Shown here: positions 114-52,398 of the stretch, piece after piece
Layout of the letters: each line of letters opens with the position of its first letter
Position numbering within the stretch: position 1 is the stretch's first letter
Assembly: GCA_030390025.1 (NCBI GenBank)
Contig: CM059431.1
Coordinates: 94,366,001-94,430,000, forward strand
Direction of reading: 5' to 3'
DNA length: 64,000 bases
From: Squalus acanthias
Lineage: Eukaryota
Notes under the pieces: model-generated
The model's database searches: none
Told to the model about the DNA's origin: nothing
Seen by the model: the letters and a program-made list of their open reading frames with translations, nothing else
Made by a program: the position numbers and the translations under genes

Positions 114-1373
114 ATGGGAACCATTTATATCCTCTCATCCTGGTCGTCAGATTTGGAGGAAGAGCAGCCGCGGCAGCAGCGCAACCAAGCACAGCAGCAG
201 CACCAACAACAGGAGCGCCAACCTTCTCCTCAGCCTCCTGATGATGCACAGGGCAGAGGGTGTCAGCGCAGGGCTGCACCTCGCCGCAGGAGAAACCCCC
301 AACACCGGCTTTACAGGCAGAGGATCAGCTTCCTCAACATGAGTGAGCAGTAGTGCCAAAGGAGTCTGAGACTTTCGCAAGAGGTAGTCACTGACATCTG
401 CACAATGCTGCACCAACACCTGGAGCCCAGAGGAGCGGGTGGACACTCCTTCCCAGTGGCTGTCAAAGTCACCACCACACTCAACTTCTTTGCTTCGGGC
501 TCCTTCCAAGGATCATCTGCAGACATCAGCGGCATCTCCCAGTCGGCCGCACACGTCTGTATCACGCAGGCTACCGATGCCCTCTTTGCAAAGGTGCACA
601 ATTACATCCACTTCTCTATGGATGAAGCAAGTGTAACTTCGCGTGTGGTTGGCTTTGCTAATAAGGCAGGCTTCTCAAGGGTGCAGGGCATCGTAGACTG
701 CACACATGTGGCCATTAGGGCACCCCATCACAATTCAGCTGTATTTGTCAACCGCAAGGGCTTCCACTCCCTTAACATCCAGCTGGTGTGTAACCACAGG
801 AAGATCATCATGCATGTTTGCGCAAAGTACCCTGGCAGTTGCCATGACTCCTTCATCCTGCGGCAGTCTACTGTGCCTCAGCTCTTCAATCCGCCAACCC
901 AACTTTCAGGATGGCTACTTGGCGACAAGGGCTATCCCCTGAAAAAGTGGCTCATGACACCGATGAGGAGGCCATCAAACGAGGCTGAGGAGCGGTACAA
1001 TGTGAGCCACATTTCCACAAGAAGCATCATAGAGCAAAACATCGGCTTTCTCAAAATGCGCTTCTGATGCCTCAACAGATCTGGTGGAGCCTTGCAGTAT
1101 GCACCAGCCACAGTGTCCAGAGTCATCATCGTCTGCTGTGCCCTGCACAACATCGCACAGCAGCGTGGCTTAGCGCTCCCTGAGGAACAAGTGGCTCAGT
1201 GCAGAGCATCCTCGAAAGAAGAAGGAGGAGGACGAGGAGGACGAAGAGAACGAGGACGAGGAGGAGGAGGCATGCCTTGCGGGGCCAGATGTGACCAATC
1301 CAGCAGCACTCGAGCACATTGCTGGTTGTCACGCAAGGGATGCACTCATCCAAGCCAGATTCCCTTAAGCTAA
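114..1373 (+). pseudogene. Harbinger (HARBI1-like) DDE transposase, disrupted
   Basis: ORFs 114, 405 and 1092 share one frame, split by TAG (351-353) and TGA (1065-1067). Motifs [59 protein letters not shown]. Confidence 0.93.
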
Positions 1374-1652: not shown

Positions 1653-3552
1653 CTATTTGTGTGTTAGCTTCCTCTTACGCGAGCTTCTACATGGTGCTTC
1701 CCCTGTGGCTTCAGCAGATGTAGAGGCACCTTGCTCACTTTGATGCTGCGCCTGCTTCGATGCCTTTGGCAGGCGTCCTCTGGGTTTGGGTGCCTGGGAG
1801 AGTTCCTCCACAGTCTGCTCTTCCTGCGGCTGTGCAGGGGCTGAGACGGCCATCTCAGTTGGGTGAGGACTCTGGGGCTCTGACCCAGGGCTCCGCAGTG
1901 GCATGGTCATGTGAGCACTTGGAGAGGAGCCCACACTTCCTGTTGTCTGCCACCAACATCCCTCTCATGGGTCACCCGCACTTCAGTGCTAGCAAGTGGC
2001 TGGAGAGCACTTTGCTGCACATCAGTGGGGCCATGAAGACCCGTCTCTGTACTGACAATCCTCATAACAGGGACATCCATGTACCTCTGGTGTCTCTCCT
2101 TAATAAATGCCCATCTATCCTCCATAGCAGACCATCTATTTAGAAGAGTCACCATGTTCTCGTGTGTCTGGTGACTTATGTCCTCCAAGAAGGTTGCCAC
2201 CCTCTCCATGGCGGCATGTTCATGCACCATTGCCTCCACAAAGGCAGTGCTCATGTTGGAGTTGGACTCCTCCATTCTCTCCACACCCGCAGTTACCCTG
2301 GAGGCAAACCCTGTCAGAGACTCCTGCACTTGTTCCTGGAGTTCCAGCACCGCTCTCTTTCAGGATGGCCCCAGAGGCACAGCGTCTACATGCAGCTGAG
2401 CAGAGCTAGGAGCGTCCAGCTCCCTCCGCCGAGGACTCTCCACTGCTGTCGCTGTCTCCACCGCTGCTGATGCTCACTTGTGAGCTGTGATACACCAGGT
2501 GACAACACTACTCTATGTTGCGAAGGCCCCGCCGAGGTGTGCGTATCTGCGCTGGTGCTGGGTGCGCTGAGTCCTGGTGACGCTGCTCCCTCAGAGGCTG
2601 CAGGTTCTTCTAAGAAGTCGTCCGGCTCTTCCTCCTGAACAGTGGGGAGGGGGGCTCTTGATGGTCCTGTGGGAGAGTAAAGGCATCAGTTAGACATCTG
2701 ATTTTTAGATAGCAGACACATCCTATTGTGCAGATGATACAAAGTGAATCCCTATGAACATCATATACCAATCATGAAATCTAAATGTGAGGGATGAAAC
2801 TCTATTCTGTCACCAGCTTCATCTAGTGCGCCCGTCTCTCCGTCCCCCACTTCCAGCCCCTCACCGCCTCCCACGATCTCATGCGCAGCTTCCTCAGCAC
2901 TTGTCAATGTCGCCAACGTTGGAGCCCCTCTTCCTGTCTTTGCTCTCTCGCTCCTATTGTGGGCTATCGTTTCCTGCAAGGAGGGACACAAGTGGAGTTT
3001 CAGCGAGATTGATGGAGTGACTGAAGAATTCATAACAGAAGCTTAGAGGGAGACCAAGATGGAGTGAGGTGCCAAGAGGAAGGTGCCACCCTGTGCGTTG
3101 TTAGTTGATGTCATTGCATAACAGTGAGAGCGAGTGTGAGGGGTGCATAATAGGATGGTGAAGTGATTCAATACAGAGAGAGAGATGGACAGGTAATGGT
3201 GCAAGGGAAGTAAGAGTAAGGTGTGATGTGGAGGAGTAGGCTTACAAAGCAGAGTGCTGGTGATGAGGAGAAGGGAAGCAGATAAGTGTGATGTGAAACT
3301 CACTTTTGCTGATCGCAGAAGATCATTGAACCGTTTCCGGCACTGGATCCAGGTGCGTGAACAAACGGACCTTGCGCTGACCTCCTCAGCAATATGCAGC
3401 CAGGCTGCCTTTGTTTGCTGAGGAGGCTTCCTCTGGCCATCGGGAGGGAACAGAATCTGCACCCTCTCAAGGCGCCCTCTTACTCCCTCCACAAGAGCTT
3501 GGAGGGAGTGCTCATTGAAACGTGGAGCAGCCTTCGGTTTTGCACCACTCAT
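1653..3552 (-). pseudogene. Harbinger Myb/SANT-like DNA-binding protein; exons 3552-3304, 2973-2814, 2666-~1653 (frameshifted)
   Basis: MSGAKPKAAPRF...W..IAEEV...RTWIQCRKRFNDL; GT/AG introns (phase 0, then phase 1); basic C-terminus RSSRKRK. Confidence 0.88.
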
Positions 3553-3809
3553 TGTGGCCTTGGCACATTCAGAGACCAGCAGAAATGAGAAATGAAAGGC
3601 TGAGGCTGCATGAGCCCCTTAAAAACAACTGCAGCAATGACATCATCAGAGGCGACTAACAGACCCGATCGCAGTCATTGGACCAGCCAGTGCGCACCAC
3701 GGCACTTAATAGGCCAATTAAATTAAAATGTCAATTCGGGAGCGGCTGAAACCGGCAGCGGGCCCAGAACCGACCCACCAGGCAACCCGACTCCAACCCG
3801 CCTCCTCCA

Positions 3810-4155: not shown

Positions 4156-4278
4156 GTATGTTACTTTTTGTTACAAAGGGATTAGAGTATAAGAGAAGTC
4201 TTACTACAATTATACAGGGAATTGGTGAGGCCACACCTGGAGTACTGTGTACAGTTCTGGTCTCCTTACCTAAGGAAA

Positions 4279-4620
4279 AAAATGAGAAGTCGCACAACAC
4301 CAGGTTATAGTCCAACAGATTTATTTAATTTTACAAGCTTTCGGAGCTATCGCTCCTTCGTCAGGTAAGTTCGCAATGAGAGAATCTCCCAGAATTCACA
4401 ATTTAAACCCAGACAAAATCTATTCACATTATTCGCTACAACAAAGAGCACAGCCAAGACAATGAGATGTGTCCCAGGGGGTCCAGCGTGTCAAACCACC
4501 TGCTGGCTGCATATCCTGTCAATTTGTGTTCTTGTGTTTTTAAAAAAAAAAAAACACCTGGGAAGACCGGCCATGATGTCAAGTCACGTTCTGTATCGTG
4601 ACATGAACCCGATATCGCGA
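4279..4620 (-). mobile_element. Short non-coding Penelope-like retroelement with hammerhead motif
   Basis: 13-bp TSD TTACCTAAGGAAA (4266-4278 and 4621-4633); first ~220 bp are very similar to 52399-52623; contains a hammerhead core. Confidence 0.85.
4331..4368 (-). ncRNA. Minimal type I hammerhead ribozyme motif
   Basis: Minus strand reads UUAC-CUGACGA-A-GGAGC-GAUA-GCUCC-GAAA-GC-UU-GUAA: conserved core, 5-bp stem II, 4-bp stem I, palindromic AAGCUU in place of stem III. Confidence 0.8.
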
Positions 4621-5276
4621 TTACCTAAGGAAAGACATACTTGCCTTAGAGGGAGTGCAGCAAAGGGTCACTAGACTGGTTCCTGGGATGAGGGGATTGC
4701 CCTATGAGGAGAGATTGAGTAGACTAGGTCTATATTCCTTAGAGTTTAGAAGAATGAGAGGTGATCTAATTGAAACATATAAAATTCTTAAGGGGCTTGA
4801 CAGGGTTAATGCTGGGAAAATGTTTCCCCTGGCTGGGGAATCTAGAACACGGGGTCACAGTCACAGAATAAGGGGTTGGCCATTTAGGACTGAGATGAGG
4901 AGAAATTTCTTCACTCAGAGGTTGGTGAATCTTTGGAATTCTCTACCCCAGAGAGCTGTGGATGCTCAGTCATTGAGTATATTCAAGACAGAGATCGATA
5001 GATTTTTGGGAACGAAGGGAATTAAGGGATATGGGGATAGTGCGGGAAGGGGGAGTTGAGGTAGAAGATCAGCCATGATCTTGATGAATGGCGGAGCAGG
5101 CTCAAAGGGCCAAATGGCCTACTCCAGCTCTTATTTCTTATGTTCTTATGTTCACTTCCTCCCCAGCCATGAGCCGCTCACAACAACTCCTCTCCCACCT
5201 CCCCCCTCGATTTACCTAGCGTCCTGCTGCCTTCTCTTGATACGAGCAGGCACTGAACTGGGCCGTCCAATCTTAT

Positions 5277-7559: not shown

Positions 7560-10500
7560 CGTACGGATATGCAGATCAGGGAGGTGAACACATGGCTGAA
7601 GAAGTGGTGTGGGAAAGAGGAGTTCCTTTTCTGGGACACTGGCACCAGTATTGGGACAGGAAGGAACTGGACCATTTTGACGGGCTCCACCTGAACCGGG
7701 CTGGGACCAGGGTCCTAGCGGAAAGGATAAATAGGGCATTCACAGGGACTTTAAACCAGTAAATGAGGGGATGGCTCAGGTGGAAAAGGTAGTATAAAAA
7801 ATAGTTCTAAAACAAACGAAAGGAAGAGAGTAGAGTAATAGTCAGAAATTGTGCTTTAGGCACTACAGGTAAAGGGAAAACTAAAAGATGTAAAGTGATT
7901 AAACCAGGAGAGAGAAATAAGAATTGTGTGAGTAAAACATCAGAGCAGGACAGGTTAGGGTGTGTGGCCCAAATGAGTGTTATTTATACGAACACACGTA
8001 TAAGTATAAGAAACAAATTGAATGAACTGCAGGTGCAAATTCAACTTGGAGGGTATGACATGGTAGCCATTACTGAGACATGGCTGTAAGAAGGTCAGGA
8101 CTGGGAACTAAATATACCAGGTTATAAGGTCTACAGGAAGGATAGGGAAAATGGCAGAGGGGGAGGAGTAGCCTTAATGATTAATGAAATCACTTCAATG
8201 ATAAGAGAGTATATAACGAGAGGTAGTGGAAACTTTATGGTTAGAATTAAGAAATAGAAAAGGATTTAAGACTATAGTAGGAGTTATGTATAAGACCCCC
8301 TGGTAGCAGCTGTGAAGTGGTAGAATGCATAATTGCAGAGATTGGACAAGCAAAGGCAGAATGGTTTTAATGGGGGATTTTAACTTTCATATAGATTGGT
8401 ATAAGCAGACTAGCTCATGTCAGAAAGCTAGTGAATGTCTTAAGTGTATTCAGCATAGTTTTCTGCAACAACATGTCCAAGAACCAACAAGGGGGCAGGT
8501 CATATTAGATTTAGTAATCAGAAATGAGCCAGATTTAGTTAATAGCCTAACGGTCCATGAACATTTATCTAATAGCAATCCTAATATGATTGAGTTCAAT
8601 GTAGTGTTTGGAAGGGAGAAACGCAAAACAGCTACTAAGATTCTAGATGCGATGTGACAGAGTCTGTCCACAGTAAACTGGACAAATTTGCTAATGGGTA
8701 AAATGACAGTAGATCAGTGGGAGGTGTTCAGAAAAGAATTTAATGTGATACAGAACCAGTTTTTACCCCTAAGGAGTAAGAGGTCTACTTGCCAAAAAAA
8801 AAACCCAGCCATGGACGACTAAAAAGGTAAGGGACAACTTAAAACTAAAAGAAAAAGCATTGAAAAATGCAAAAACTAGCACAGATCCAGGCAATTGGGA
8901 GAGATACAAAGAACAACAAAAGGAGACAAAACAGATAGTAAGAGCTACAAAAAGGGAGTATGAGAAGAAACTTGCAAGGGATATCAAAATCAACACAACA
9001 TTTTTTTACAATTATATTAGGAAAAGAGGATGGTCAGGAGCAATGTCGGCCCCTTAAAAACTGATAATGGTGATATTGCAATAGAAAATAAGGAAATGGC
9101 GGACATGTTGAATAATAACTTTGCATCAGTATTTACAGTAGAGGAAGAGGATAGCATGCCAGAAATCCCAAGAAAACAAATATTAAATCAGAGATGCAGA
9201 TTCACCAAAATTAAAACATAAGCAAAATAACAGTAATGAAGAAAATAATGGCACTAACAAGTGACACATCCCCAGGACCAGATGGTTTCCATCCCAGGAT
9301 TTCAAAAGAAGTGAGAACATTGCAGATTCCCTAACTATAATCTTCCAAATTGTTTCGATTCAGGAACTGTTCCTTTAGATTGCAAAACTGTGCATGTCAC
9401 TCCAATATTTAAGAAAGGTGAGATAGGGAAACCAGGGAATTATAGACCAGTTAGCCTAACATCTGTTATCGGGAAATTACTAGAGTCTATAATTAAGGAT
9501 AGAGTGACTGAACATCTTGAACATTTTCAGCTGATCAGAGAGAGCCACCATGGATTAGAAAAGGGGGGTCATGCCTGACGAACCTGTTGAATTTTTTGAA
9601 GAGGTGACTAAAGTAGTAGACAGGGGAATGTCTATGAATGTTATTTATATGGACTTCCAGAAGGCATTTGATAAAGTCCCTTGTAAGTGACTGTTAGCTA
9701 AAGTTGAAGCTCATGGAATTGAAGGTAAATTATTGACCTGGTTAGGAAATTGGCTGAACGGCAGGAGACAGAGAGTAAGGATAATGGGCAGGTACTCTAA
9801 TTGGCAGGATGTGACTAGTGGAGTCCCACAAGGATCCCTGTTGGGACCTCAACTATATACCGTATTCATTAATGACTGAGATGATGGGATAGAAAGCCAC
9901 GAATCCAAATTTGCCAATGACAAAAAGATAGGCGGCATTATAAGTGGTGTAGAAGCAGAAAATGAAAAAGAAATATTAATAGATTAAGCAAATAGGCAAA
10001 ACTGTGGCAAATGGATTTCAATGTAGGCAAATATGAGGTCATCCACTTTGGACCTAAGAACAGGGTACTTTCTAAAATGTGAAAAGCTAGAAACAGTGGA
10101 TATCCAAAGAGACTTGGGGGTCCAGGTACATAGATCATTAAAATGTCATGAACAGGTACAGAAAATAATCAAAAAGGCTAATGGAATGCTGGCCTTTATA
10201 TTTAGAGGACTAGAATACAAGGGGGTAGAAGTTATGCTGCAGCTGTACAAAACCCTGGTTAGACCACACCTGGAGTATTGTGAGCAGTTCTGGGCACCAC
10301 ACCTTAAGAAGGATATATTGGCCTTGGAGGGAGTACAGCGTAGATTTACCAGATTGAAACCTGGACTCCAAAAGTTAAATTATGAGGAGAGATTACACAA
10401 ACTAGAGTTCTATTCCCTGGTATTTAGAAGTTAAGGGGTGATTTGATCGAAGTTTTCAAGATATTAAGGGGAGCAGATAGGGTAGATAGAGAGGAGCTAT

Positions 10501-12409: not shown

Positions 12410-12539
12410 AATGATTGTATTTTTAAATGTACAACATAATTTACATTTGTATATCTTCTGCTCAGTTTCTGTTATGAAATGTAAATCTATTTTTTGGAAA
12501 ATATTGAAATCATTTTTGGTTGAACAGTTTTCTTTACAG

Positions 12540-12869
12540 ATGCTGATGATCGAGAATCTGTTACAGCTTCAGTCGGAGGAACAATAACACTTCGATGTAG
12601 AAACTCCTCTCTGGGAAATCTGACTCAAGTTACCTGGACCAAAGCAAGCAACAATAAATCTGAAACTGTTTTTACTTACTTACTTACTCTCAATAAGACA
12701 TACACATCCAATGACAGCCAGAGACTGGTGCTGTTACAGACTCCCCAAGAACCCTACAGTCTGCAGATACAGAAGCTGCAGATTTCTGATTCAGGGAATT
12801 ACACCTGCAAAGTGAATGGAGTTAATTTACAACAACACACCAAATGGCACCTTCTTATTTCCAAACCAG
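12540..12869 (+). CDS. IgV-domain exon of a CD200R-like type I membrane receptor
   Basis: tttacag| acceptor and G|gtagga donor; 330 bp, phase 1-1, open. ADDRESVTASVGGTITLRCRNSSLGNLTQVTWTK...YSLQIQKLQISDSGNYTCKVNG...WHLLISKP has the Cys-Trp-Cys core, DxGxYxC and six N-glycosylation sequons. Confidence 0.93.
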
Positions 12870-13040
12870 GTAGGAACTTCCTGCTTTCACTCTTCTCATC
12901 TCTCTGTGTCAAAAGAAAAACATGAACAAACTTTACAAATCAGTTTCAATGTTTTGTAGATATTAAGTTTGAAATTTTTAATGTAATTAGCTGCAATGGT
13001 AACAGAGAACTATTAAAACTATAATAAACTGTTACATTAT

Positions 13041-14889: not shown

Positions 14890-16075
14890 ATGGGGGCAGT
14901 ACTTGTACTGGACCTCGCCCATCACCGTCAACATTGGAGGCAGCAGAGGCAGAGAGAAAGATTGCAAAATGTGGCCAGAGAGAGGAGGGCCAACAGGGCT
15001 CTCAACAGGAGGCCTTACTCTCCGAGGGTATTCCGGCAGCATTTCTCCGACATGAATTTCACTGAGGAACAGTGTCTTAGAGAGCTCCGCTTCACCAAGG
15101 ACGTAGTCACAGAGCTCTGCCACCTCCTCCAGCTAGACCTTTAGACTCACATCATGAGCACCAGGGCTCTCTCAGTGGCAGTCAATGTCACCGTCGCCCT
15201 CAATTTCTACGCCAGCGGATCCTTCCAATGTGCAACAGGGGACATATCTAACATATCGCAGTTCGCCGTCCATTGCTGTATCCACGAGGTCACAGAGGCT
15301 CTCTACAGAAGGAGAAGGGATTACATTTCCTTCCCCATCACCAGAGAGAAGCAGCGCAAGCGTGCATATGTCTTTGCCAGGATAGCGGGCTTCCCCATGG
15401 TGCAGGGCGCCATTAACTGCACCCACGTCACTTTGCGGGCACTGCATAATAATCCTGAGGTGTTCCGTAACCGCAAAGGTTACCACTCACTTAATGTGCA
15501 GTTGGTGTGCGACCACACACAGCAAATCCTCACCGTCAATGCCCGCTATCCTGGCAGTAGCCACGATGCCTTCATCCTGTGCCAGCTCTGTTCCAGCCAC
15601 CACATCAAGCTCACGGCTGGCCGCTGGGAGATAAGGGCTATCCGCTCTCCACCTGGCTCATGTCTCCCCTCCGCAACCCCAACACTCGTGCCCAGCACCC
15701 ATATAATGAGAGCCATGCTGCCACCAGGAACATCATTGAGCAGACCATCGGAGTGCTCAAGCAATGATTCCGCTGCCTTGACCACTCGGGAGGAGCCCTC
15801 CAGTACTCGGCTGAGCGGGTGTCCCCTTTCATCGTCATCTGCTGCATGCTGCACAACTTGACCATCATGAAGGCGCAGCATAGCCGCACCACCTCAGGAG
15901 GCTGAAGTGGAAGACAAGGAGGATGAGGATGAGGAGGAGGAGGAGGCGGAGGAGGAGGAGGAGGAATAGGAGCACGAACAGCAGCAATGGAGGAGCCAGC
16001 CACTCCATCGGCCTTGTGGAAGGGTGGTCCGTGATCGCATCATCAGACTTTGGTTCCAATGAATTCGAGGCCACT
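14890..16075 (+). pseudogene. Harbinger transposase (stop and frameshifts)
   Basis: RRPYSPRVFRQ...ALNFYASGSFQ...INCTHV...RNRKGYHSLNVQLVCD...[15 protein letters not shown] and IIEQTIG lie in a shifted frame. Confidence 0.92.
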
Positions 16076-16289: not shown

Positions 16290-18472
16290 TCCTACGTAGT
16301 GTCTCCCCAGTGGCTGCAGCAGGGCTGGTGGAAGGCTGCTGAGTGTCGATGCCAGACATTACAGATGGCCTTGCAGGACGCCCTCGACCAGCTCTGGGTC
16401 TGGAAGGCCCACTGTAGACTGCGCCACCTCAGGCTGGGCGGCAGCAGTCTGGGTTGGCTGGATGACAGGCAGCGACAAGGGCAATGGCAGAGTGGCAGTG
16501 GTGGGATCAGCAATGCTGTCATCCTGAGAGAGGACAACAGGTTCCTGCTCCACTGACCCACTGTCACTCCCCTGGGGCAGCACCTCAGCAAACATACCAA
16601 TCTGCTGGAGCAAAGATTGCTGGCCTGCTGCGACACCGTGAGATCCCCGGTGGACTGTGGTGGACCCAGGGATGATGGCCGCAGTCAGAGCTTTCATGGC
16701 ATCAAGCTGAGACTGCATGAGAGATGAGAGGAGTCTGAGATTCGATGCCAACAACCATTGACTGCATTACAGCACTAAGATGTTGCGTCATTTCTGCCTG
16801 TGCTGCAATGGAAGCTGTCACATCGTCCATGACATGCGCCCTGAGGTCTGGATCCGCACGGTCTCTCTGGGAGTCCACCATCCTCTGTACAGTGGAAATG
16901 ATGGGCTCCATGGTGTGCGCAGAGCTCTGTGCAATGTTGGAGGTGAACTCCTCCACGCTCCTTACATGGAAACATAGAAAAATAGGAGCAGGAGTAGGCC
17001 ATTCGGCCCTTCGAGCCTGCTCTGCCATTCAATATGATCATGGCTGATCCTCTATCTCAATACCATATTCCCGCTCTCTCCCCATACCCCTTGATGCCTT
17101 TTGTGTCTATAAATCTATAAATCTCCTTCTTAAATATATTCAGTGACTTGGCCTCCACAGCCTTCTGTGGTAGAGAATTCCACAGGTTCACCACCCTCTG
17201 AGTGAAGAAATTTCTCCTCATCTCAGTCCTAAATGTCCTACCCCGTATCCTGAGACTGTGATCCCTCGTTCTAGACCCCCCAGCAAGGGGAAACATCCTC
17301 CCTGCATCCAGTCTGTCTAGCCCTGTCAGAATTACAATTGCCGACAGGCTCTCGGGCACCCTTGCCATTGCACCTATCATCTCGGAGTGCATGACCATCA
17401 CCCTTCTTGTGAATACCTCCCCATCGAGCTTCTCATTTCAGTTCTGTGCAGCAGAACTCGCCCTCCGGGGAGCTGGCTCCCGAGCTACCCTTTCCCCCTG
17501 GTCTTGCTGCAGCCCGCTCGTCCTCGGTGCATCACCCAGTGCAGACCCCGCTACTAAACTTGCCTCTAAAGATCACGTAGTGCCAATATCTGAGGTGGTG
17601 CCTATGGGTTAGAGATGCAGTGACGTGGTGCTTTGCTCCTCCTCCTCTTCTCCTTCATCATTCTCAGTGAGAGGCTCAAGGACAGGCTGGTCATCTGGTT
17701 GCTGATTCTCTGAAAGCATAAAGGCACAACACTCACATTAAGGTGAGGGCAGGGGGGCAGGAAGGGAGAAGGAATGCAGACAGTATCAGGAGCTGGAAAG
17801 TGGGAAAGGCTTGTGGTGTGATGAGGAAGTGGGATGAGAGAAGGAGAGGGGATGAACATACCGTTGTTGCCCCCAACGGGGTCAACGTTGCCGAGGGCCA
17901 CGCCGCCCACCACCTGCTGCCCAATGAGTCGCAGCACTCGCTCCTCCAGGTCTGAGAGCTGCTGGAGCTGCGCACCACCCCCGCCTGTTCTCTGCTGCTC
18001 CCTCCTATTGTGGGCCATCTTGGCCTGCAAGAGAAATTAATGTGTTTGAGTCAGAGTCCAGCTATGTGTTTGGGAGATAGGCCTGCCGTCATTGAATAAC
18101 TGTGATTATAGGCCAGATGTGAGATGTGGATGAGAGTTTGACTAGGTGCTTGGTGGGTGGGTGAGTGGTGGGGGTGTGGTGGTTTGTGCACTGTGTACAG
18201 ACTGAGGTTCAGATGCTGGTATGTAGGACCTGTTGAAGCATGTCCTCAACTTGACCACCCGAGTGAGGTCATTGAATTTCTTCCGGCATTGTGTCAGGCT
18301 GCGTATAACCACACCACTGGCCGAGACCTCCTGGACCACTTCCCTCCACATTGCCCTGAAGATCTGGGGCAGTGTCCGGGAACAGCACTGCCCTCCTTTG
18401 CGCCACTCCCGCGACCAATGCCTCGTCTGTGAAATGACGAGCTCTCTCCCTGGGAGTGGGATCAGCTATCAT
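16290..18472 (-). pseudogene. Harbinger Myb/SANT gene (exon 2 is 18024-17862), interrupted by CR1
   Basis: RARHFTDEAL; RSLTQCRKKFNDLTR; AKMAHNRREQQRTGGG. Confidence 0.85.
16967..17331 (-). mobile_element. CR1 3'-end fragment nested in H2
   Basis: LDRLDAGRMFPL...FFTQRVVNLWNSLP plus 3' UTR. Confidence 0.9.
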
Positions 18473-24583: not shown

Positions 24584-27559
24584 GTAGTACCCAGCAGTGT
24601 CACACTCGGTGTAGTTCCCAGCAGTGTCACACTCGGTGTAGTTCCCAGCAGTGTCACACTCGGTGTAGTACCCAGCAGTGTCACACTCGGTGCAGTACCC
24701 AGCAGTGTCACACTCGGTGTAGTACCCAGCAGTGTCACACTCGGTGTAGTACCCAGCAGTGTCACACTCGGTGTAGTTCCCAGCAGTGTCACACTCGGTG
24801 CAGTACCCAGCAGTGTCACACTCGGTGTAGTACCCAGCAGTGTCACACTCGGTGTAGTACCCAGCAGTGTCACACTCGGTGTAGTACCCAGCAGTGTCAC
24901 ACTCGGTGTAGTACCCAGCAGAGTCACACTCGGTGTAGTACCCAGCAGTGTCACACTCGGTGTAGTACCCAGCAGTGTCACACTCGGTGTAGTACCCAGC
25001 AGTGTCACACTCGGTGTAGTTCCCAGCAGTGTCACACTCGGTGCAGTACCCAGCAGTGTCACACTCGGTGTAGTATTCAGCAGTGTCACACTCGGTGCTG
25101 TACCCAGCAGTGACACACTCGGTGCTGTACCCAGCAGTGACACACTTGGTGCAGTACCCACAAGTGTCACACTCGTTGTAGTATTCAGCAGTGACACACT
25201 CGGTGCTGTACCCAGCAGTGTCACGCTCGGTGCAGTATTCAGCAGTGTCACACTTGGTGCTGTACCCAGCAGTGACACACTCGGTGCTGTACCCAGCAGT
25301 GACACACTCGGTGCAGTACCCAGCAGTGTCGCAGTCGGTGTAGTGCCCAGCAGTGTAATACTCGGTGTCGTACCCAGCAGTGACACACTTGGTGCAGTAC
25401 CCACAAGTGTCACACTTGGTGTAGTACCCAGCAGTGTCACACTCGGTGCTGTACCCAGCAGTGACACACTTGGTGCAGTACCCACAAGTGTCACACTTGG
25501 TGTAGTACCCAGCAGTGTCACACTCGGTGCTGTACCCACAAGTGTCACACTTGGTGTAGTACCCAGCAGTGTCACACTCGGTGCTGTACCCAGCAGTGAC
25601 ACACTTGGCGCAGTACCCAGCAGAGTCACACTTGGTGCAGTACCCAGCAGTGTCACTCTCGGTGTAGTACCCAGCAGTGTCACACTCGGTGCTGTACCCA
25701 GCAGTGACACACTTGGCGCAGTACCCAGCAGTGTCACACTCGGTGCAGTACCCAGCAGTGTCACACTCGGTGTAGTACCCAGCAGTGTCACTCTCGGTGT
25801 AGTACCCAGCAGTGTCACACTCGGTGTAGTACCCAGCAGTGTCACACTCGGTGTAGTACCCAGCAGTGTCACACTCGGTGCAGTACCCAGCAGTGTCACA
25901 CTCGGTGCAGTACCCAGCAGTGTAACACTCTGTGTAGTACCCAGCAGTGTCACACTCTGTGTAGTACCCAGCAGTGTCACACTCGGTGTAGTACCCAGCA
26001 GTGTCACACTCGGTGTAGTACCCAGCAGTGTCACACTTGGTGTAGTACCCAGCAGTGTCACACTCGGTGTAGTACCCAGCAGTGTCACACTCGGTGTAGT
26101 ACCCAGCAGTGTCACACTCGGTGCAGTGCCCAGCAGTGTCACACTCGGTGTAGTACCCAGCAGTGTCACACTTGGTGCAGTACCCAGCAGTGTCACACTC
26201 GGTGTAGTACCCAGCAGTGTCACACTCGGTGTAGTACCCAGCAGTGTCACACTCGGTGTAGTACCCAGCAGTGTCACACTCGGTGTAGTACCCAGCAGTG
26301 TCACACTCGGTGTAGTACCCAGCAGTGTCACACTCGGTGTAGTACCCAGCAGTGTCACACTCGGTGTAGTACCCAGCAGTGTCACACTCGGTGTAGTACC
26401 CAGCAGTGACACACTCGGTGTAGTACCCAGCAGTGTCACACTCGGTGTAGTACCCAGCAGAGTCACACTCGGTGCAGTACCCAGCAGTGTCACACTCGGT
26501 GTAGTACCCAGCAGTGTCACACTCGGTGTAGTACCCAGCAGTGTCACACTCGGTGTAGTACCCAGCAGTGTCACACTCGGTGTAGTACCCAGCAATGTCA
26601 CACTCGGTGTAGTACCCGGCAGAGTCACACTCGGTGTAGTACCCAGCAGTGTCACACTCGGTGTAGTACCCAGCAGTGTCACACTCGGTGTAGTACCAGC
26701 AGTGTCACACTCGGTGTAGTACCAGCAGTGTCACACTCGGTGTAGTACCCAGCAGTGTCACACTCGGTGTAGTACCCAGCAGTGTCACACTCGGTGTAGT
26801 ACCCAGCAGTGTAATACTCGGTGTAGTACCCAGCAGTGTCACACTCGGTGTAGTACCCAGCAGTGTCACACTCGGTGTAGTACCCAGCAGTGTCACACTC
26901 GGTGTAGTACCCAGCAGTGTCACACTCGGTGTAGTACCCAGCAGTGTCACACTCGGTGCAGTACCCAGCAGTGTCACACTCGGTGTAGTACCCAGCAGTG
27001 TCACACTTGGTGCAGTACCCAGCAGTGTCACACTCGGTGTAGTTCCCAGCAGTGTAATACTCGGTGTCGTACCCAGCAGTGTCACACTCGGTGTCGTACC
27101 CAGCAGTGTCACACTCGGTGTAGTACCCAGCAGTGTCACACTCGGTGTAGTACCCAGCAGTGTCACACTCGGTGTCGTACCCAGCAGTGTCACACTCGGT
27201 GCTGTACCCAGCAGTGTCACACTCGATGCAGTACCCAGCAGTGTCACTCTCGGTGCTGTACCCAGCAGTGACACACTTGGTGTAGTACCCAGCAGTGTCA
27301 CACTCGGTGTAGTACCCAGCAGTGTCACACTCGGTGTAGTACCCAGCAGAGTCACACTCGGTGTAGTACCCAGCAGTGTCACACTCGGTGTAGTACCCAG
27401 CAGTGTCACACTCGGTGTAATACCCAGCAGTGTCACACTCGGTGTAGTACCCAGCAGTGTCACACTCGGTGTAGTACCCAGCAGTGACACAATCGGTGTA
27501 GTACCCAGCAGTGTCACACTTGGTGCAGTACCCAGCAATGTCACACTCGGTGCAGTGCC
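24584..27559. repeat. Minisatellite, 27-bp unit CCCAGCAGTGTCACACTCGGTGTAGTA, about 110 copies
   Basis: Direct tandem array with point variants; two 26-bp units near 26695-26725. Confidence 0.98.
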
Positions 27560-27892: not shown

Positions 27893-28473
27893 ATATAGAA
27901 ACATAGAAGATAGGAGCAGGAGTAGGCCATTCGGCCCCTCGAGCCCGCTCCGCCATTCGATGAGATCATGGCTGATCATCCAAACTCAGTACCCTGTACC
28001 TGCCTTCTCCCCATATCCCTTGATACCTTTAGATTTAAGAAATATATCTAACTCATTCTTGAATATATTTAATGACTTGGCTTCAATTACCTTTTGTGGT
28101 AGAGAATTCCACAGGTTCACCACTCTCTGGGTGAAGAAATTCTTCCTCATTTCTGTCCTAAATGGCTTACCCCTTATCCTTAGATTATGACCCCTGGTTC
28201 TGGACTCTCCAACCATCGGGAACATTCTTCCTGCATCTAGTTTGTCCAGACTTGTCAGAATTTTATATGTTTCGATGAGATCCCCTCTCATTCTTCGATA
28301 CTCCAGCGAGTATAAGCCTAATCGACCCATTCTCTCCTCATATGTCATTCCTGCCATCCCAGGTATCAGCCTTGTGAATCTTCACTGAACTCCTTCCATG
28401 GCAAGAACATCCTTCCTCAGATAAGGCGACCAAAACTGCACACAGTACTCAAGGTGTGGTCTCACCAAGGCCC
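27893..28473 (-). mobile_element. CR1 3' fragment
   Basis: ORF 27986-28357 is CR1 ORF2 C-terminus, followed by 3' UTR. Confidence 0.92.
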
Positions 28474-29721: not shown

Positions 29722-32700
29722 GGCCGGAATCTTTACCTTGGAGTCATGTTTTGTGCGTGCGGACCGCATAGTGGGTCGGGAGCCCAATGTTGTGAGCAGC
29801 ACATTCTTCAGCGCAACTTTAACTTAATGGCCCCAATTAATCCAGTCATGTGCGTTTCCCGACCCTATTAAATGGAGCAGGTCTGATGACGTCAATGATG
29901 ACTCGTTTCCAGCACCGATATTTAAAACAGCCTTGTACACATCTCATTTCAAGATTGGTGAAGGAGTGTTCAAGGTGATTTCCAGAGGTCTGACTACTGT
30001 TACAAAGCTTATAAAAGTGTCGGTCATGGATACACAAAGGCAGAGGGCGGCACCAAGATTTAGCGATGCATCCCTCGATGGTGCAGGCAGTGAGAGCACG
30101 CAGGGAGGTCCTCTTCCCTGGTGATCGGCGCAAAAGACCACCCAAATACACTGAAAGGGCATGGTTGGAGATCACAGAGGAGGTCAACAGCAGGGATGTT
30201 CTCAGGAGGACGTGGATCCAGTGCAGGAAAAGATTCAACGATCTCATGAGATCAGGAAAGGTGAGTGCAATGTCACACTCACCTACATCCTGATGTGTCT
30301 GTCACCAAATCCCTATCACTCTGCCATTCAAAGCTTACTTTTGCACATCATTCCTCACACCAAACTACCTTGCAGGTCCACCCATCCGTCTCTGTCTATG
30401 CACCTACTGACATCCTCATCTGACTAACCACCCCTGACACTCACCTTCATCTTGATGCAATCATAGAAAGTAACACCACAGAAGGAGGCCATTTGGCAAT
30501 GTCACCCCACTCCCTCATAGTCACCCTCTACAGACGTAGCCCATCCATTCCTTACACTCATTCCATCACTCTCACTCAAAGTTCTCTTCTTTCCCCCCTT
30601 GCAGGAGAAGAGAGCCCAGAACAATAGGGAGAAGCAGAGAACCGGAGGTGGCCCTCCAGTCGTCACTCAGTTGAATCCAGCAGAGGAGGAGGCCCTGGAG
30701 ATCACTGGAGTTGCAGAGCTGCTGGCGGTGGGAGACGGAGAGAGGGGGACATCCCAGCAACCAGGTGACAGAATTACATCTCATCCAGCCACATGGCATG
30801 CAGCAGTTACTCATATGGTGACTGAAGTCAGAAGCCAGTGAAATTTCATCATGTGCATAATGGTAACGTTACCCATTCTTATTATAACACTTCTAATTCA
30901 TCTCTTTACTCTCCCACAGGTCCATCAAGTGCCCCCCCCCCCCCACCCCACCACACTGTCCAGCTGCAGGAGGAAGACGACTCCTCAGAGGAAGCTCCAG
31001 CCTCTGAGGGTGCAGCATCAGCAGACCCAAGCGCAGCCAGCACCAGCGCAGATACGCACACCTCGGTGGGTTCTGTGCAAGATAGAGACATTTTTTTTAA
31101 GTTTGTTTGTGGGCGTCGCTGGCAAGGCCAGCATTTATTGCCCATCCCTAATTGCCCTTGAGAAGTTGGTGATGAGCCGCCTTCTTGAACTGCTGCAGTT
31201 CGTGTGGTGAAGTTACTCCCACAGTGCTGTTAGGTAGGGAGTTCCAGGATTTTGACCCAGCGACGATGAAGGAGCGACGATATACTTCCAAGTCAGGATG
31301 GTGTGTGACTTGGAGGAGAACTTGGAGGTGGTGGTGTTCCCATGCGCCTGTTGCCCTTGTCCTTCTCGGTGGAAGAGGTCGCGGGTTTGGGAGGTGCTGC
31401 TGAAGAAGCCTTGGCGAGTTGCTGCAGTGCATCTTGTAGATGGTATACACTGCAGCCACAGTACGCCGGTGGTGGAGGGAGTGAATGTTTAAGGTGGTGG
31501 ATGGGGTGCCAATCAAGCGGGCTGATTTGTCCTGGATGGTGTCGAGCTTCTTGAGTGTTGTTGGAGCTGCACTCATCCAGGCAAGTGGAGAGTATTCCAT
31601 CACACTCCTTACTTGTGCCTTGTAGATGGTGGAAAGGCTTTGGAGAGTCAGGAGGTGGGACACTCGCCGCAGAATACCTAGCCTCTGACCTGCTCTTGTT
31701 GCCACAGTATTTGTGTGGCTGGTCCAGTTAAGTCTTTGGTCCATGGTGACCCCAGGATGTTGATGGTGGGGGATTCGACAATGGTAATGCTGTTGAATGT
31801 CAGGGGGGGTGGTTAGACTCTCGCTTGTTGGAGATAGTCATTGTCTGGCACTTCTGTGGTGCGAATGTTACCTGCCACTTATCAGTCCAAGTTTGAACGT
31901 CGTCCAGGTCTTTTTGCATGCGGGCATGGACTGCTTCATTATCTGAGGAGTTGGGAATGGCACTGAACACTGTGCAGTCATCAGCGAACATCCCCATTTC
32001 TGACCTTACGTTGGAGGGAAGGTCATTGATGAAGCAGCTGAAGATGGTTGGGCCTAGGACACTATCCTGCAGCGATGTCCTGGGGCTGTGATGATTGACC
32101 TTCAACCACCACAACCATCTTCCTTTGTGCTAGGTGTGACTCCAGCCAGTGGAGAGTTTCCCCCCCCCCGATTCCCATTGACTTCAGTTTTACTAGAGCT
32201 CCTTGATGCCTCTTGGTCAAATGCTGCTTTGATGTCAAGGGCATTCACTCTCACCTCACCTCTGGAATTCAGCTCCTTTGTCCATGATTGGACCAAGGCT
32301 GTAATGAGGTCGGGTGCCGAGTGGTCTTGGCAGAACCCAAACTGGGCATCAGTGAGCAGGTTATTGGTGAATAAGTGCCGCTTGATTGCACTGTTGATGA
32401 CACCTTCCATCACTTTGCTGATGATTGAGAGTAATTGGCCGGATTGGATTTGTCCTGCTTTTTGGTGACAGGACATACCTGGGCAGTTTTCCACATTGTC
32501 GGATAGATGCCAGTGTTGTAGCTGTACTGGAACACCTGGTGTCTCACAAGTCACAAGTGAGCAGTAGAGACTCCTCGCCGGAGGGCGCAGAACGCTTCAA
32601 GCTCTGCTGAGCTGCATGCAGATGCTGAGCCTCGGGGGCCATTGAGAAAGAGGTGATCTTGGAGGGGTAGTAACAATTGCATGAGGATCTGGCAGCTTTT

Positions 32701-38744: not shown

Positions 38745-39780
38745 ATGAGTATCTTCAGAGAGGGAGGGGAGGCAGCGAAGAAGAGGAGAAAATGTTCACA
38801 GAAGGAGGAGGAGGAGGAGGAGGAGGGCCCGCAACAGGAGGCCTTACCCACCTAGGGTCTTCAGAGAGCTCTTCTCTTATATCCACTTAAGCGAGGAGCA
38901 GTGTATTAGGAGGCTTCGCTCCAGCAAGGAGATGGTCACAGAACTCTGCCACCTCCTGCAACCAGACCTGCAGCCTCAAAGCAGGGCAAACACGGCTCTC
39001 CCAGTGGGCCTCAAGGTCACCGTGGCCCTCAATTTCTTCGCCAGCGAATCCTTCCAGTCTGCAGCAAGAGACATAACTAACAACTCCCAGTTCACCGTCC
39101 ATCGCTGCATCCGGGAGGTCACTGAGGCTCACTACACCAGGAGAAGGGACTACGTTGTCTTCTCTCTGAGCAGAGAGAAGCAGGAGGAGCACGCATGTGA
39201 CTTTGCCAGGAGCTTTCCCATTGTGCAGGGTGCCATTGACTGCACCAACGTGGCTTTGCAGCCACCGGATAAAAATCCTGAGATCTTCCATAACCGCAAA
39301 GGCTACCACTCACTTAATGTGCGACCACGCCAAGTGCATCCTGATGGTCAATGCCCGCTATCCTGGCAGCAGTCATGACGCCTTCATTCTGCGTCAGTCC
39401 AGTTTGCCAACAATCTTCCAGCCACCACGTCACATCCGAGGGTGGCTGCTCGGAGACAAGGACTATCCGCTCTCCACCTGGCTGATAACTCCCCTCCACA
39501 ACCCCAACACTCATTGCCAGCACTCATAAAGTGAGAGCCATGCTGCCACCAAGAACATCATCGAGTAGACCATCGAGCTGCTGAAGCAACGGTTCCTTTG
39601 CCTTGACTGCTCGGGAGCAGCCCTCCAGTACTTGCTGGAGTGGATGTCCCATTTCATGGTGGTCTGCTGCATGCTTCACAACTTAACCAGCATGAGGGCG
39701 CAGCCCTTGCCAGCAGGGAAGAGGAAGAGGAAAAGGAAGAGGATGAGGATGAGGAGGAAGAAAGGAGGCAGGCAGCAAAT
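38745..39780 (+). pseudogene. Harbinger transposase (disrupted)
   Basis: VTELCHLLQPDL...ALNFFASESFQ...IDCTNV...[33 protein letters not shown]. Confidence 0.92.
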
Positions 39781-41223: not shown

Positions 41224-41345
41224 GTCAGGTGAAGTGAAGAAATACCTTCACTTCACCTGACGAAGGAGCAGCCGCTCCGAAAGCTTGTGATTTCAAATAA
41301 AACTGTTGGACTATAACCTGGTGTTGTGCGACTTCTCACTTGTGT
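41224..41345 (+). mobile_element. Penelope-like terminal fragment with an inverted 5' duplication
   Basis: Reverse complement of the ends of the 4279 and 52399 inserts; 16-bp perfect inverted repeat 41224-41239 / 41246-41261. Confidence 0.82.
41253..41290 (+). ncRNA. Minimal type I hammerhead ribozyme motif
   Basis: UCAC-CUGACGA-A-GGAGC-AGCC-GCUCC-GAAA-GC-UU-GUGA. Confidence 0.8.
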
Positions 41346-43009: not shown

Positions 43010-45000
43010 AAACTGTGCTATTGCCTCTCCCTGTTCCTTCTGCCAAAATACATCACCTCACTTCTCTGCAGCCATTTACCAGAACTCGCTGTTTTCTGTC
43101 CTTAAGCCAATTCCGTATCCAAGCTGCCACTGACCCACCTATTCCATGAGCCTCAATTTTGTTAACTAACCTTCTATGTGGTACTTTGTCAAACGCCTTC
43201 CGAAAATCCATGTAAGCAACATCCATTGCATTCCCTTAATCAACCCTCTCCGTTACTTCATCAAAAAATTCAATTAGATTAGTCAAACACGATCTGCCTT
43301 TTACAAATCCGTGTTGGCTCTCCTTAATTAGCTTAAACCTCTCCAAGTGCCCGTTAATATTTTCCTTGATTATTGTTTCTAAAACTTTACCCACCACTGA
43401 TGTTAAACGGACTGGCCTGTAGTTACTGGATTGTCCTTACACCCTTTTTTGAACAATGGTGTCACATTTGCCACTTTCCAATCCTCAGGCACCTCCCCCG
43501 CATCTAGGGAAGATTGGAAAATTATGGCAAGTCCTTCTGCTATCTCCTCCCCCAATTCCCTTAGCAACCTGGGATGCAAGCCATCTAGACCAGGCGACTT
43601 GTCCACTCTAAGCATACCCAGCCTTTCGAGTACATCCTGTCTATCAATTTTCACCCCTTCCATTGCTCTACCTTTTCCACTCCTACCGATCTTTTGTCAG
43701 CACCACCTTCTTAGTAAACACCGATACAAAGTACTCATTGAGTATTCCAGCCTTGCCCTGTGCCTCTAAGCATATATCACCTTCTTTGTCACTAATAGGC
43801 CCCACCCCGCCTCTTACTACCCACTTACTGTTTACATGCCAGTAGAAGATTTTTGGGTTCCCTTTTATGTTAACCGCCATTCTACTCTCATATTCTCTCG
43901 TTGCCAATCTTATTTTCATCTTCACATCCTCTCTCAACTTATTGTATTTGGTCTGGTTCGCCCTTGACGAATTCACCTGACATTCATCATACTCCCTCTT
44001 TTTTTGTTTCGTCACCTTCTCTATCTCCCTTGTCATCCAAGGAGCCCTTGCTTTGGTTCTCTTACCATTCCCTCTTGTTGGAATGTACCTAGCCTGTACT
44101 TGGAAAATCTCCTCCTTAAAGATCACCCATTGTTCCATTACAGTTTTTCCTGTCAGTCTTTGGTTCCATTTTACCCTGGCTAGATCCTTTTGCATTCCAT
44201 TGAAGTTAGCCCTATTCCAGTTTAGAAGTTCCACTCTAGATTGTTCCTTGCTCCTCTCTATTGCTAATCTAAATCTTATGATACGATGATCACTCGTACC
44301 CAAGTGTTCTCCCACAGACACTTGGTCATCCTGGCCCACCTCAATCCCCAGCAACAGATCCAGCAATGCCTCCTTCCTAGTTGGCCAAGAACATACTGGT
44401 TAAGGAAATTCTCCTGAACACATTACAGAAATTCCTCCCCCAACTTTCCCTTTACCCTAGCATTATCCCAATTGATATTTGGGTAATTAAAGTCCCCCAA
44501 AATCAGCACTCTATAGCTCTTGCATATCTCTGCAATTTCCCTGCAGATTTGCTCCTCTACCTCCCTCTCACTATTTGGAGGCCTATAGCCCCCAATAGCG
44601 TGATCATATCCTTTTTGCTCCTCAACTCTAACCAAATGGATTCTGTCCTTGTCGCCTCAAGAACATCCTTCCTTTCCAACACTACAAGATCTTCCTTAAT
44701 CAGCACTGCCACCCCACCTCCCTTTTTTCCTTCCCTATCTTTTCTGAACACCTTGTACCCTTGGATATTAAGTGCCCAGTCCTCACCGTTTTTAAGCCAC
44801 GTTTCTGTTATTGCCACAACATCATATTGCCACACGGCTAATTGTGCTTGTAGCTCACCAACCTTATTCACCACAGTTTGTGCGTTTACGTACTTGCATT
44901 CTAAACCATTTTTGAATTTTTCGTAGTCTTTCTTAGTCTGCTCCTATCTAAGATTGTACTACTACTGCCTCTAGTACTATCTTCTCTAGTACTATCCAAC
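43010..45000 (-). mobile_element. CR1 ORF2 fragment (endonuclease and RT N-terminus)
   Basis: VAITETWL, GGGVAVLIK, LGDFNYP, SDH, KSPGLDGLHPR, WKVANVTPLFKKG. Confidence 0.92.
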
Positions 45001-46349
45001 ACATTACTTCGGGGACTGGCTGTGCGGGTGACAGATCTTGGTCATCTGAAAGCAGAAACGTGCAAGGGTCGGGCTATGGTGAGGGAAGGTGGGGAAAGCA
45101 AAATATGCATGCATACAGCATCAGCAGCTTGTAAGTGAGAAGAGATTGTGGGATGAGGCGGAAGTGGTATGTGAGAAGAAGGATTAGGAATGACAATACC
45201 GTTATTGTCCCCAAGGGCCTCAACTTCGTCCGTTGCCACAGCCTCGGTCAATTCCCCTCCAATTATGTCAAACACTGTCTCCTCCAGTTGATTCAAGGCC
45301 TGTAAAGCGGCTTGGCCGCCTCCCATCTGCTGCTGCTCGTGCTGATTGTGAGCCACCTTGGCCTGCAAGAGAAAGGGAAGTGAGTCAGTGAGTGTGGTGT
45401 AATGTGTTTGGGTGATATGCCTTCCATAGTTGAATAGCTGTCAGTATGTGCAAGGTGTGAGATGTGAGTGTGAGTGTTGCAGCAGTGGTAAGGTTGTGAA
45501 GGTGAAATGAAGCCATGATTGTGAGGTATGAGTGGTGAAAGGTAGCAATTGTTGGTAGGTGAGTGATGGGGGTGTGGTGCATGGAGCAGTGGGTGTGAGG
45601 CTTGTGGTGCAGATGGTGGGATAGGCATTTGCTGAAGCCTTCACTCACCTTGACCTGCCGTGTGAGGCCATCAAACTTTTTGTGGCACTGGATCCATGCC
45701 CTCGGTACGACACTGTTGGTCGTGACATACCCAGCTATCTCTTGCCACAGCCTTCTCGAAGTATGTACTGGTAGCTTCCTGCCACCCTGCGGGAACAGGA
45801 CAGCCCACTTCCTTTCCACTGCCAGTAACAATGCCTCCAGAGCCGCATCAGAGAACCTTCTGGCTCATTCTCTTTGCTGTTGCTCAGCCATGTCTCCCAA
45901 CTGCAATGACAATGAGGTGCTACTGCATCAAAGCACCTCCCCTTTAAGTAATAGAGAAAGACTAGGCCAAATATTACTGGCCATTAGACTGCACCCGGTA
46001 TTGGCCCACCTGTTGAGTGGTAAGCCAATCAGCAGCGCGTTTAGTGCTGAGATCAGCACTACAATCATGTAAATAAGCAGGCAGCACAAATTTTGCATGC
46101 TGCCTGGACCACTTTGAGCAGGAGCAGCCAAATAGTGCTGGGCCATTTTCGGGCCATATCCAATTTCTAGGACACCATCTTTCCATTTCCAGATTTTTTT
46201 AAACTGAATTTCAATTTTCAAACTGCCATGGTGGGATTTAAACTCACATTCATTTGAATGATTAGACCAGGCCTCTGTATTACTAGTCCAGTAACATAAC
46301 CACCACACTACTGTATCCAAGCTTTACTTTTAATATTCTTTCCCTTCAG

Positions 46350-51507: not shown

Positions 51508-52398
51508 AAGCCTTTGTGCTATTTAACACGTTCAAGATTTTTTTCCCTTCAATAATGTTATTGAAGTATATATATTTAGTAAAGAGTATAGTTTTTATGA
51601 TTGTGACATAGATCAGTGTATTTGCATTTTAACAGTGATTTATGCTGGATTGGCAATGCACTGAGCAATAACAGAGGGATAATTATAGGCTTAAATCAGG
51701 ATCAAGTCTCGTGTCTCATCACAAATTATAATAACTCTGAATAAGTAGGACATTGGCTCATTAAAACACTGCACTTAGATTGACATTTACTTCCCATGTT
51801 GGTGACCGACAGAGACAAGCCCCTGTCTTGGCCTCTCTTGTTATAGTCAAGCAGATTCAAGATGGGAATTTTCAACCAGGTTCCCATTCCTGATCACTGT
51901 TGCAGTGAGTTCTGGCTGAAGCACGTGGGTGTCGGGTGAGGACAGCATCAGGCTTGGCTGTGATGCCCTCCATAATTCAGTAGCCTACAGCCACTCAGTA
52001 TCTAGACTCGCACATAAAGAAGGGTGATTTGGGACGGCACCAAAAGGCTGCCAGTGCTTGTGGAACTGCACCCTTGCATCAGTTATGTCTTTCAGGAAGG
52101 AGAGTAGAAGATGAGATGTTTTTAAGCAGCTTCCTTTGCTATAGGAAGTTAAAAGCCCATGGGATCCAGGGCAAAGTGTCAAGTTGGATTCAAAACTGGC
52201 TTGGAGACAGGAAGCAGAGGGTAATGGTTGATGGGTGTTTTTGTGATGGAAGGCTGTTTCCAGTGGGGTTCCGCAGGATCAGTACTAGGTCCCTTGCTTT
52301 TTGTGGTATATCTCAATGATCTAGACTTGAATATAGGGGGTATGATTAAGAAGTTTGCAGATGATACTAAAATCGTCTGTGTGGTTGATACTGAAGAA

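Follow-up and report, generated by a model that had tools for sequence, protein, structure and literature searches.

The Three Inserts and Their Surroundings

The window, by which we mean the whole 64-kb stretch of DNA analyzed here, contains three members of one repeat family. BLAST of each copy against the window returned exactly these three, named c1, c2, and c3:

4279–4620, minus strand: c1, a 342-bp 5′-truncated retro-copy and the longest of the three, delimited by a 13-bp direct repeat, by empty sites, and by homology with c2 and c3
4266–4278 (left) and 4621–4633 (right): target-site duplication of c1, TTACCTAAGGAAA, found with a flanking-direct-repeat script
52399–52623, minus strand: c2, 225 bp, within the reverse transcriptase region of a LINE; hammerhead core at 52453–52483, terminus at 52401–52436
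52390–52398 and 52624–52632: 9-bp duplication of c2, ACTGAAGAA, found with the same script
About 41224–41338, plus strand: c3, about 115 bp, from a diverged lineage; hammerhead core at 41257–41286, terminus at 41303–41338

c1 and c2 are nested in copies of LINEs of the APE-endonuclease/reverse transcriptase type, and the frame flanking c2 matches the Pfam family RVT_1. According to BLAST, c1 and c2 are 90.3% identical over 227 columns, and c1 and c3 are 88.8% identical over 89 columns (41250–41338). The 3′ end is common to all three copies, and their 5′ ends lie at three different points. An earlier reading made from the letters of this DNA, hereafter the sequence-only reading, had proposed the c1 and c2 inserts with their 13-bp and 9-bp duplications, and the direct-repeat script reproduced its boundaries to the base. 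Its statement that both share their 3′ end with a third insert, placed here at about 41224–41338, was borne out by BLAST and alignment.

For c3, the flanking-repeat script found no convincing target duplication, the best candidate being the 5-nt GGGAG, and no empty site could be rebuilt, as the paralogous repeat that one flank matches differs from the one matched by the other. Its truncation point lies just upstream of helix I of the motif described below. At its 5′ end, c3 is also duplicated in inverted orientation over 16 nt, which gives a hairpin at 41224–41261 with near-perfect 16-nt arms (inverted BLAST self-match, 89.5% of 38); c1 and c2 have no such structure. Heavy 5′ truncation, tails, and inverted 5′-truncated copies are described in parts of Craig et al. 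(PMC8557442) as hallmarks of Penelope-like elements (PLEs). The inverted duplication of c3 fits loosely with such inverted copies, is too short to weigh much, and could also have been produced by snap-back priming.

Other features of the window are as follows:

59470–60132 (−), 8316–8654 (+), 44560–44943 (−), 31803–32129 (−), 47704–48146 (−), and 52624–53427 (+): fragments of APE-endonuclease/reverse transcriptase LINEs
354–1064 (+), 15145–15858 (+), and 39170–39526 (+); 3046–3618 (−), 45388–45864 (−), 30015–30290 (+), and 18145–18465 (−): PIF/Harbinger fragments, with DDE_Tnp_4 pieces and nearby Myb/SANT-like ORFs
24584–27556: tandem array in which the 27-bp unit GTAGTACCCAGCAGTGTCACACTCGGT recurs about 110 times (93% matches), creating long spurious open frames on both strands
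12524–12922 (+): match to the immunoglobulin V-set domain (PF07686, E = 3.8e-15), the only host-gene-like feature among the scanned ORFs

Insertion of c1 into a LINE Copy

c1 is a true insertion into a LINE copy. This is proven by the empty site, which is found both in a paralogous LINE copy and in contigs from public runs. In the LINE copy at 28275–28468, paralogous to the host of c1, the duplicated site is present once, and contigs from runs X1 (n = 2) and X12 (n = 2) pass straight from position 4265 to 4621, 13 letters being ambiguous. All the contig evidence reported here comes from Logan contigs, which do not show RNA ends, of four of 24 listed public runs, X1, X6, X12, and X20. For X6 and X12, RNA as the source is no more than a guess; both cover the LINE flanks and the empty sites as the DNA run does and are treated as uninformative about transcription. 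X20, recorded as a metatranscriptomic RNA library from a different coded organism, provided one contig, over 4547–4622 only, and none over the hammerhead or the terminus. This contig is 171 nt long, is identical to c1 over that interval, and runs 75 nt past the 5′ end of c1; on its opposite side, it has a longer A-run interrupted by CCC. Words of the element are present at shares of 0.41–0.89 in runs of six different coded organisms, and the family is thus common to related species.

At both datable 5′ junctions, those of c1 and c2, 2 nt can be assigned either to the element or to the target. For c1, these are 4621–4622 in the right copy of the duplication, and contigs derived from other copies align through 4622. 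For c2, the GT before TTGACACG matches the homologous GGTTTGACACG of c1. Such microhomology is usual at 5′-truncated target-primed insertions and is known from LINE-1 junctions. Both datable targets begin with TT(T)C. The common 3′ end, the varied 5′ ends, and the varied duplications fit the target-primed reverse transcription proposed in the sequence-only reading.

A Predicted Minimal Hammerhead Ribozyme

Pattern matching and dissection of the minus strand of c1 delimited the following features:

4331–4368, minus strand: minimal hammerhead of c1
4365–4368, minus strand: 5′ strand of helix I
4335–4364, minus strand: core and helix II
4331–4334, minus strand: 3′ strand of helix I
4320–4325, minus strand: AAUAAA hexamer, 10–15 nt after the predicted cut, kept in all three copies according to their alignment

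The pattern CTGANGA-N8-30-GAAAGCTT occurs three times in the window, once per copy, against 0.03 expected from 100 shuffles, and the 22-nt terminus described below also occurs three times against none expected; in both cases, the occurrences are homologous copies and not independent events. The same order is found in 3/3 copies: stem I (4 bp), CUGA-N-GA, a bulged A, GGAGC-loop-GCUCC, GAAA, GC, UU, and the second strand of stem I. All three therefore possess the conserved core C3-U4-G5-A6-N7-G8-A9 ... G12-A13-A14, A15.1-U16.1, and H17 at the cut site, in the form CUGA-C/G-GA ... GAAA-GC-U-U, where N7 is C or G and the 3′ strand of helix I comes after U17. Helix II, GGAGC/GCUCC (5 bp), is invariant and carries three different loops, GAUA, GAAUA, and AGCC. 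Helix I, of 4 bp, is UUAC/GUAA in c1 and c2 and UCAC/GUGA in c3; this single compensatory change, from a U-A to a C-G pair, gives thin support as it comes from n = 3 sequences. The bulged A stands before GGAGC and G10.1-C11.1 is present in 3/3 copies, whereas loop 3 is absent and the palindrome A15.1-G-C-U16.1 directly follows GAA. With AGCU as its only letters and no loop 3, helix III is predicted to be able to pair only with a second copy.

In c1, the predicted cut falls after GAAAGCUU, between 4335 and 4334, and in all three copies, it lies 52 nt before the common ...CUUCUCA end. These features support the prediction of a minimal hammerhead of type I such as PLEs carry. The sequence-only reading had described such a motif about 50 nt from the 3′ end, followed by AAUAAA, and both its anatomy (no loop III, palindromic AGCU, a nucleotide bulged after A9, G10.1-C11.1) and its position agree with the present dissection.

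When the motif is folded as an isolated segment of 44–45 nt, the minimum-energy structure of each of the three copies consists of helices I and II. In a context of 100 nt, the folds are no more stable than those of shuffled sequences (z from −0.25 to −0.35), and the minimum-energy fold of c1 is another pairing, not the hammerhead. No Rfam hammerhead model matched, either over the whole window at the gathering score or around c1 and c3 at E up to 10. Models of this kind are expected to need a closed helix III and to miss loop-less variants. Passages of Cervera and de la Peña (2014, PMC4209133) state that the minimal variants needed a dedicated descriptor, and the missing match consequently decides nothing; the Infernal search suggested in the sequence-only reading thus failed to recover the motif in a way that is expected of a helix III without a loop. 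Weak Rfam matches to CAESAR, miRNA models, and RMST_4 were rejected as chance; the miRNA ones, at 41224–41261, reflect the hairpin of c3.

Constraint on the Motif and the 3′ End

Between c1 and c3, 8 of the 40 motif positions differ, four in the strands of helix I and four in loop II, and none of the 25 positions of the core, helix II, and helix III (P = 8e-5 if the differences were spread at random). This test is not wholly circular, because c3 was found via its terminus and not via the motif. Substitutions between c1 and c2 affect 10 of 124 upstream positions and 1 of 88 positions in the hammerhead and tail (Fisher P = 0.028). Among contig variants from three runs (at a frequency of at least 10% or seen in a contig), the only ones in the 30-nt core concern N7 (4360) and loop II (4351, a one-base deletion). 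Elsewhere on c1, the stretch 4368–4486 has ten variant sites and the tail has three (4319 and 4329–4330), where the variants are c3-type letters; by density alone, this table is not significant.

As a dead copy decays alike in all its parts, these patterns reflect differences between source lineages. Since these differences spare the core and the last 36 nt, they point to selection on the hammerhead and on the last 36 nt in active elements, judging from three copies and a small test. A lack of excess conservation in the core, along with a lack of cleavage, had been named in the sequence-only reading as grounds for abandoning the ribozyme; the outcome favors the motif, as the differences among the three copies avoid the core and helix II in what is a small test.

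The 3′ Terminus and Its Abundance

4283–4318, minus strand: 36-nt 3′ terminus CUGUUGG...CUUCUCA, identical at 36/36 positions between c1 and c2 and between c1 and c3

The terminus is followed by four T in c1, two in c2, and none in c3, and a poly(A) or microsatellite tail was found in none of the three copies. With up to three mismatches allowed, the 22-nt terminus still identifies only c1, c2, and c3 in the window, and the same scan, together with BLAST, found it on none of the APE-type LINE fragments of the window. The 30-nt terminus had no exact match in collections of metagenome and genome contigs, and the hammerhead pattern had none in collections of metagenome and viral contigs; host DNA is not expected in either. 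We presume that the 36-nt terminus is the site of recognition and initiation by the reverse transcriptase.

The summed contig depth over c1, which is a poor measure, peaks on the terminus and is lower toward the 5′ end in X1, X6, and X12. This gradient fits 5′ truncation. The terminus exceeds the hammerhead from about 6-fold (X1) to about 25-fold (X6 and X12) by the same poor measure, summed contig depth. In X1, the depth rises again over 4505–4612, contrary to what a simple gradient of truncation would give. Furthermore, single contigs keep the terminus and replace the hammerhead region, passing from 4318 to 4377 in X6 and from 4327 to 4383 in X1. Together with the excess depth on the terminus, these contigs suggest that other families may share the tail. 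The 36-nt terminus might then be a portable recognition module of the PLE reverse transcriptase, carried by several very abundant noncoding families with and without the hammerhead, a reading that we regard as speculative and rather improbable. One contig of X1 jumps from 4316 back to 4274 with a single T between. It thus joins, head to tail, two fragments made up of the terminus only, a hint that very short insertions lie side by side elsewhere in the genome.

Continuation Past the 5′ End of c1 and a Putative Parent ORF

4584–4619, minus strand: possible last 11 codons of a parent ORF, translated as RDIGFMSRYRT, followed by a TGA stop at 4584–4586
4537–4555, minus strand: T14-A5 tract in the untranslated part of c1, with adjoining indel variants in contigs

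X6, X12, and X20 each provided a single contig that aligns with the 5′ part of c1 through 4622 and then continues with the same 30 letters. As the same continuation past the 5′ end of c1 was obtained in three runs, the source RNA must have been longer than 342 nt. When the frame ending at 4584–4586 is followed through 4620–4622 and into the reverse complement of the 30-letter continuation, it stays open, and AKFRTHEDGLN precedes RDIGFMSRYRT by eye. This frame may correspond to the C-terminus of a PLE ORF, a reading that comprises 22 codons, of which 11 come from the 30-letter contig consensus as read by eye. Its end may be that of a GIY-YIG endonuclease, as a ...LN.D.G stretch with its asparagine lies near the C-terminus of such endonucleases in PLEs. 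None of the strings LNRD, LNRDIG, and NRDIG occurs in the supplement of PMC8557442, nor does a 13-nt stretch of the terminus.

A Pfam search of 165 of the 175 ORFs of at least 90 aa in the window, the ten others lying inside the 27-bp tandem array, gave no GIY-YIG match, and the matches to RVT_1 and to endonucleases in the window belong to APE-type LINEs. A 60-codon open frame of c1 (4439–4618, minus strand) was rejected as coding; it has no Pfam match at E ≤ 10 and no homologue, none of the eight word-sharing candidates reaching E ≤ 1 in a search of longer proteins. The statement of the sequence-only reading that the insert holds no credible ORF thus stands for the body of c1; inside the 5′ end, one frame does close after 11 codons. 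The T14-A5 tract was considered as poly(A)-related and rejected, because whichever orientation is assumed, the run is on the wrong side of the segment next to it. A pattern scan and BLAST within the window identified no second hammerhead, internal repeat, or adjacent unit for c1.

On these letters, the parent RNA was probably that of a coding PLE, of which c1 would contain the last 11 codons and an untranslated region of about 300 nt (the pseudo-LTR). Should the frame end be real, c1 would be a truncation of a coding PLE and the family would not be separate, given that the sequence-only reading itself had held that copies which are simple truncations of a coding Penelope do not make a family of their own. 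The ragged 5′ ends and the longer parent agree with such truncations, whereas no reverse transcriptase/GIY-YIG ORF was found among the 165 scanned ORFs of the window.

Origin of the Inserts

By analogy with known systems, we infer a PLE machinery, dimeric cleavage, and a coding parent. The inserts are, with fair probability, truncated PLE retro-copies made from the RNA of a hammerhead-bearing coding PLE. c1, c2, and c3 would be dead-on-arrival, 5′-truncated products of a PLE reverse transcriptase/endonuclease, the template being a PLE-type RNA whose 3′ region bears a minimal hammerhead of the dimer type. The element protein would bind its RNA near the hammerhead and the tail and nick T-rich target DNA. 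The cDNA would start at a fixed internal site, ...CUUCUCA, 52 nt past the hammerhead cut, and early stops would be frequent, so that the copies would share their 3′ end, break off unevenly at the 5′ end with 2 nt of microhomology, and be flanked by duplications that differ in length. As helix I has 4 bp, helix II has 5 bp, and helix III has only A-G-C-U, the active fold would need a second copy, provided by a tandem transcript or by two RNAs, and would probably be assisted by protein. The hammerhead would process multimeric transcripts of the element, and the insertion step itself would be independent of the ribozyme.

Several of these features are known from other PLEs. [quoted passage not shown] For fishes, coelacanth, Xenopus, and reptiles, the same sections report thousands of mostly solo minimal hammerheads that are "probably related to truncated PLEs." The present motif resembles those of PLE pseudo-LTRs described there in being of type I without loop 3, with a palindromic 15.2–16.2, a helix I of 4 bp, and a helix II of 5 bp. 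Unlike in those PLEs, as far as they are described in these sections, no full element with flanking repeats is present in the window. Neither the family nor its 36-nt terminus is named in the text of the Results and Discussion of that article.

The Poseidon-type PLE of Anolis carolinensis, PAc, carries its hammerhead at the junction of pseudo-LTR and ORF (Frangieh et al. 2024, PMC11167929). Its reverse transcription starts at fixed internal sites about 85–90 nt past the hammerhead cut, which produces a constant "tail"; AT-rich DNA is nicked, and its ribozyme requires protein for cleavage, which insertion in vitro can do without (PMC11167929). The copies described here share with PAc a hammerhead near the 3′ boundary of the insertion and on the sense strand, a constant tail, and frequent 5′ truncation, and their datable insertions abut TT(T)C as PAc nicks AT/T-rich targets (PMC11167929). 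However, the ORF of PAc starts inside the hammerhead and its reverse transcription starts in an AC-rich stem-loop (PMC11167929), whereas the copies of the window end 52 nt past the cut, are GU-rich there, and have no ATG in between.

The sequence-only reading had seen in these inserts a separate noncoding mini-retroelement family, which is probably wrong in view of three different truncations, contigs extending past the 5′ end of c1, and the closure of a frame. In its more explicit form, such a family would be nonautonomous, either SINE-like or a solo non-LTR retrozyme, would consist of the 3′ module of a PLE only, and would be copied in trans. The body of c1 has indeed no coding capacity, and the family is very abundant, with three copies in 64 kb and, in X1, X6, and X12, a terminus depth above that of the flanking LINE; the variants that share the terminus but lack the hammerhead region suggest a portable tail. 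Animal non-LTR retrozymes are described in passages of Cervera and de la Peña (2020, PMC7229834) as tandem repeats of 150–450 bp with canonical type I hammerheads and circular RNAs. Li, Clavereau and Pollet (2026, bioRxiv 10.64898/2026.07.22.740005) report, in part of their preprint, retrozymes in the one cartilaginous fish sampled, and argue that non-LTR retrozymes are nonautonomous PLE derivatives; their mean consensus of 363 bp is near the length of c1. Like the retrozymes of both accounts, as far as these describe them, the inserts are noncoding, a few hundred nucleotides long, and low in GC, carry a type I hammerhead, and would depend on PLE machinery. Conversely, none of the three copies has a defined 5′ end, and other copies extend beyond the 5′ end of c1. 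The portions of PMC7229834 cited above define retrozymes as tandem, with a small palindromic loop on helix III and with circular RNAs; the copies of the window are solo, are truncated differently, and lack loop 3, and with one hammerhead per copy and no second one in the 342 bp of c1, they do not form the head-to-tail tandem by which retrozymes are defined. An untranslated region of about 300 nt is moreover what a truncated coding PLE is expected to leave, and a frame closes 11 codons inside c1. We therefore consider a separate family unlikely.

A SINE, or a 3′ fragment, moved by an APE-type LINE would make the hammerhead-like motif a functionless product of chance or a relic. Fragments of such LINEs abound in the window, an invariant 3′ tail with a partner reverse transcriptase is the classical SINE/LINE arrangement, and neither the Rfam hammerhead models nor the fold stabilities, which do not exceed those of shuffled sequences, speak for a ribozyme. 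However, the terminus is carried by no LINE fragment of the window, and the bulged A, G10.1-C11.1, the AGCU palindrome, and the compensated helix I go beyond what the search pattern had imposed. In addition, the core is spared where the lineages differ, and the hammerhead occupies, on the sense strand, a position known for PLEs (PMC11167929). Mobilization by an APE-type LINE is thus very improbable, and truncated retro-copies of a coding PLE are the reading that we retain.

Significance for Penelope-like Elements

The inserts do not open a new class of element: PLE tails with minimal hammerheads, masses of solo truncated copies, and nonautonomous relatives of PLEs have already been published. 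In the literature searched, the general phenomenon is fully described and nothing was found on this particular family, for which the supplements of preprint 10.64898/2026.07.22.740005 may name relevant families. From a repeat-rich animal genome, the window offers well-delimited, hammerhead-bearing retro-copies of Penelope type, for which datable insertions and empty sites are available. The constraint suggests selection on the ribozyme core and on the last 36 nt, though the ribozyme of another PLE was dispensable in vitro (PMC11167929). If the terminus were indeed a portable module, the families that carry it would be vertebrate SINE-like parasites of a Penelope-like element, and the need for the ribozyme could be read from a comparison of lineages with and without the hammerhead.
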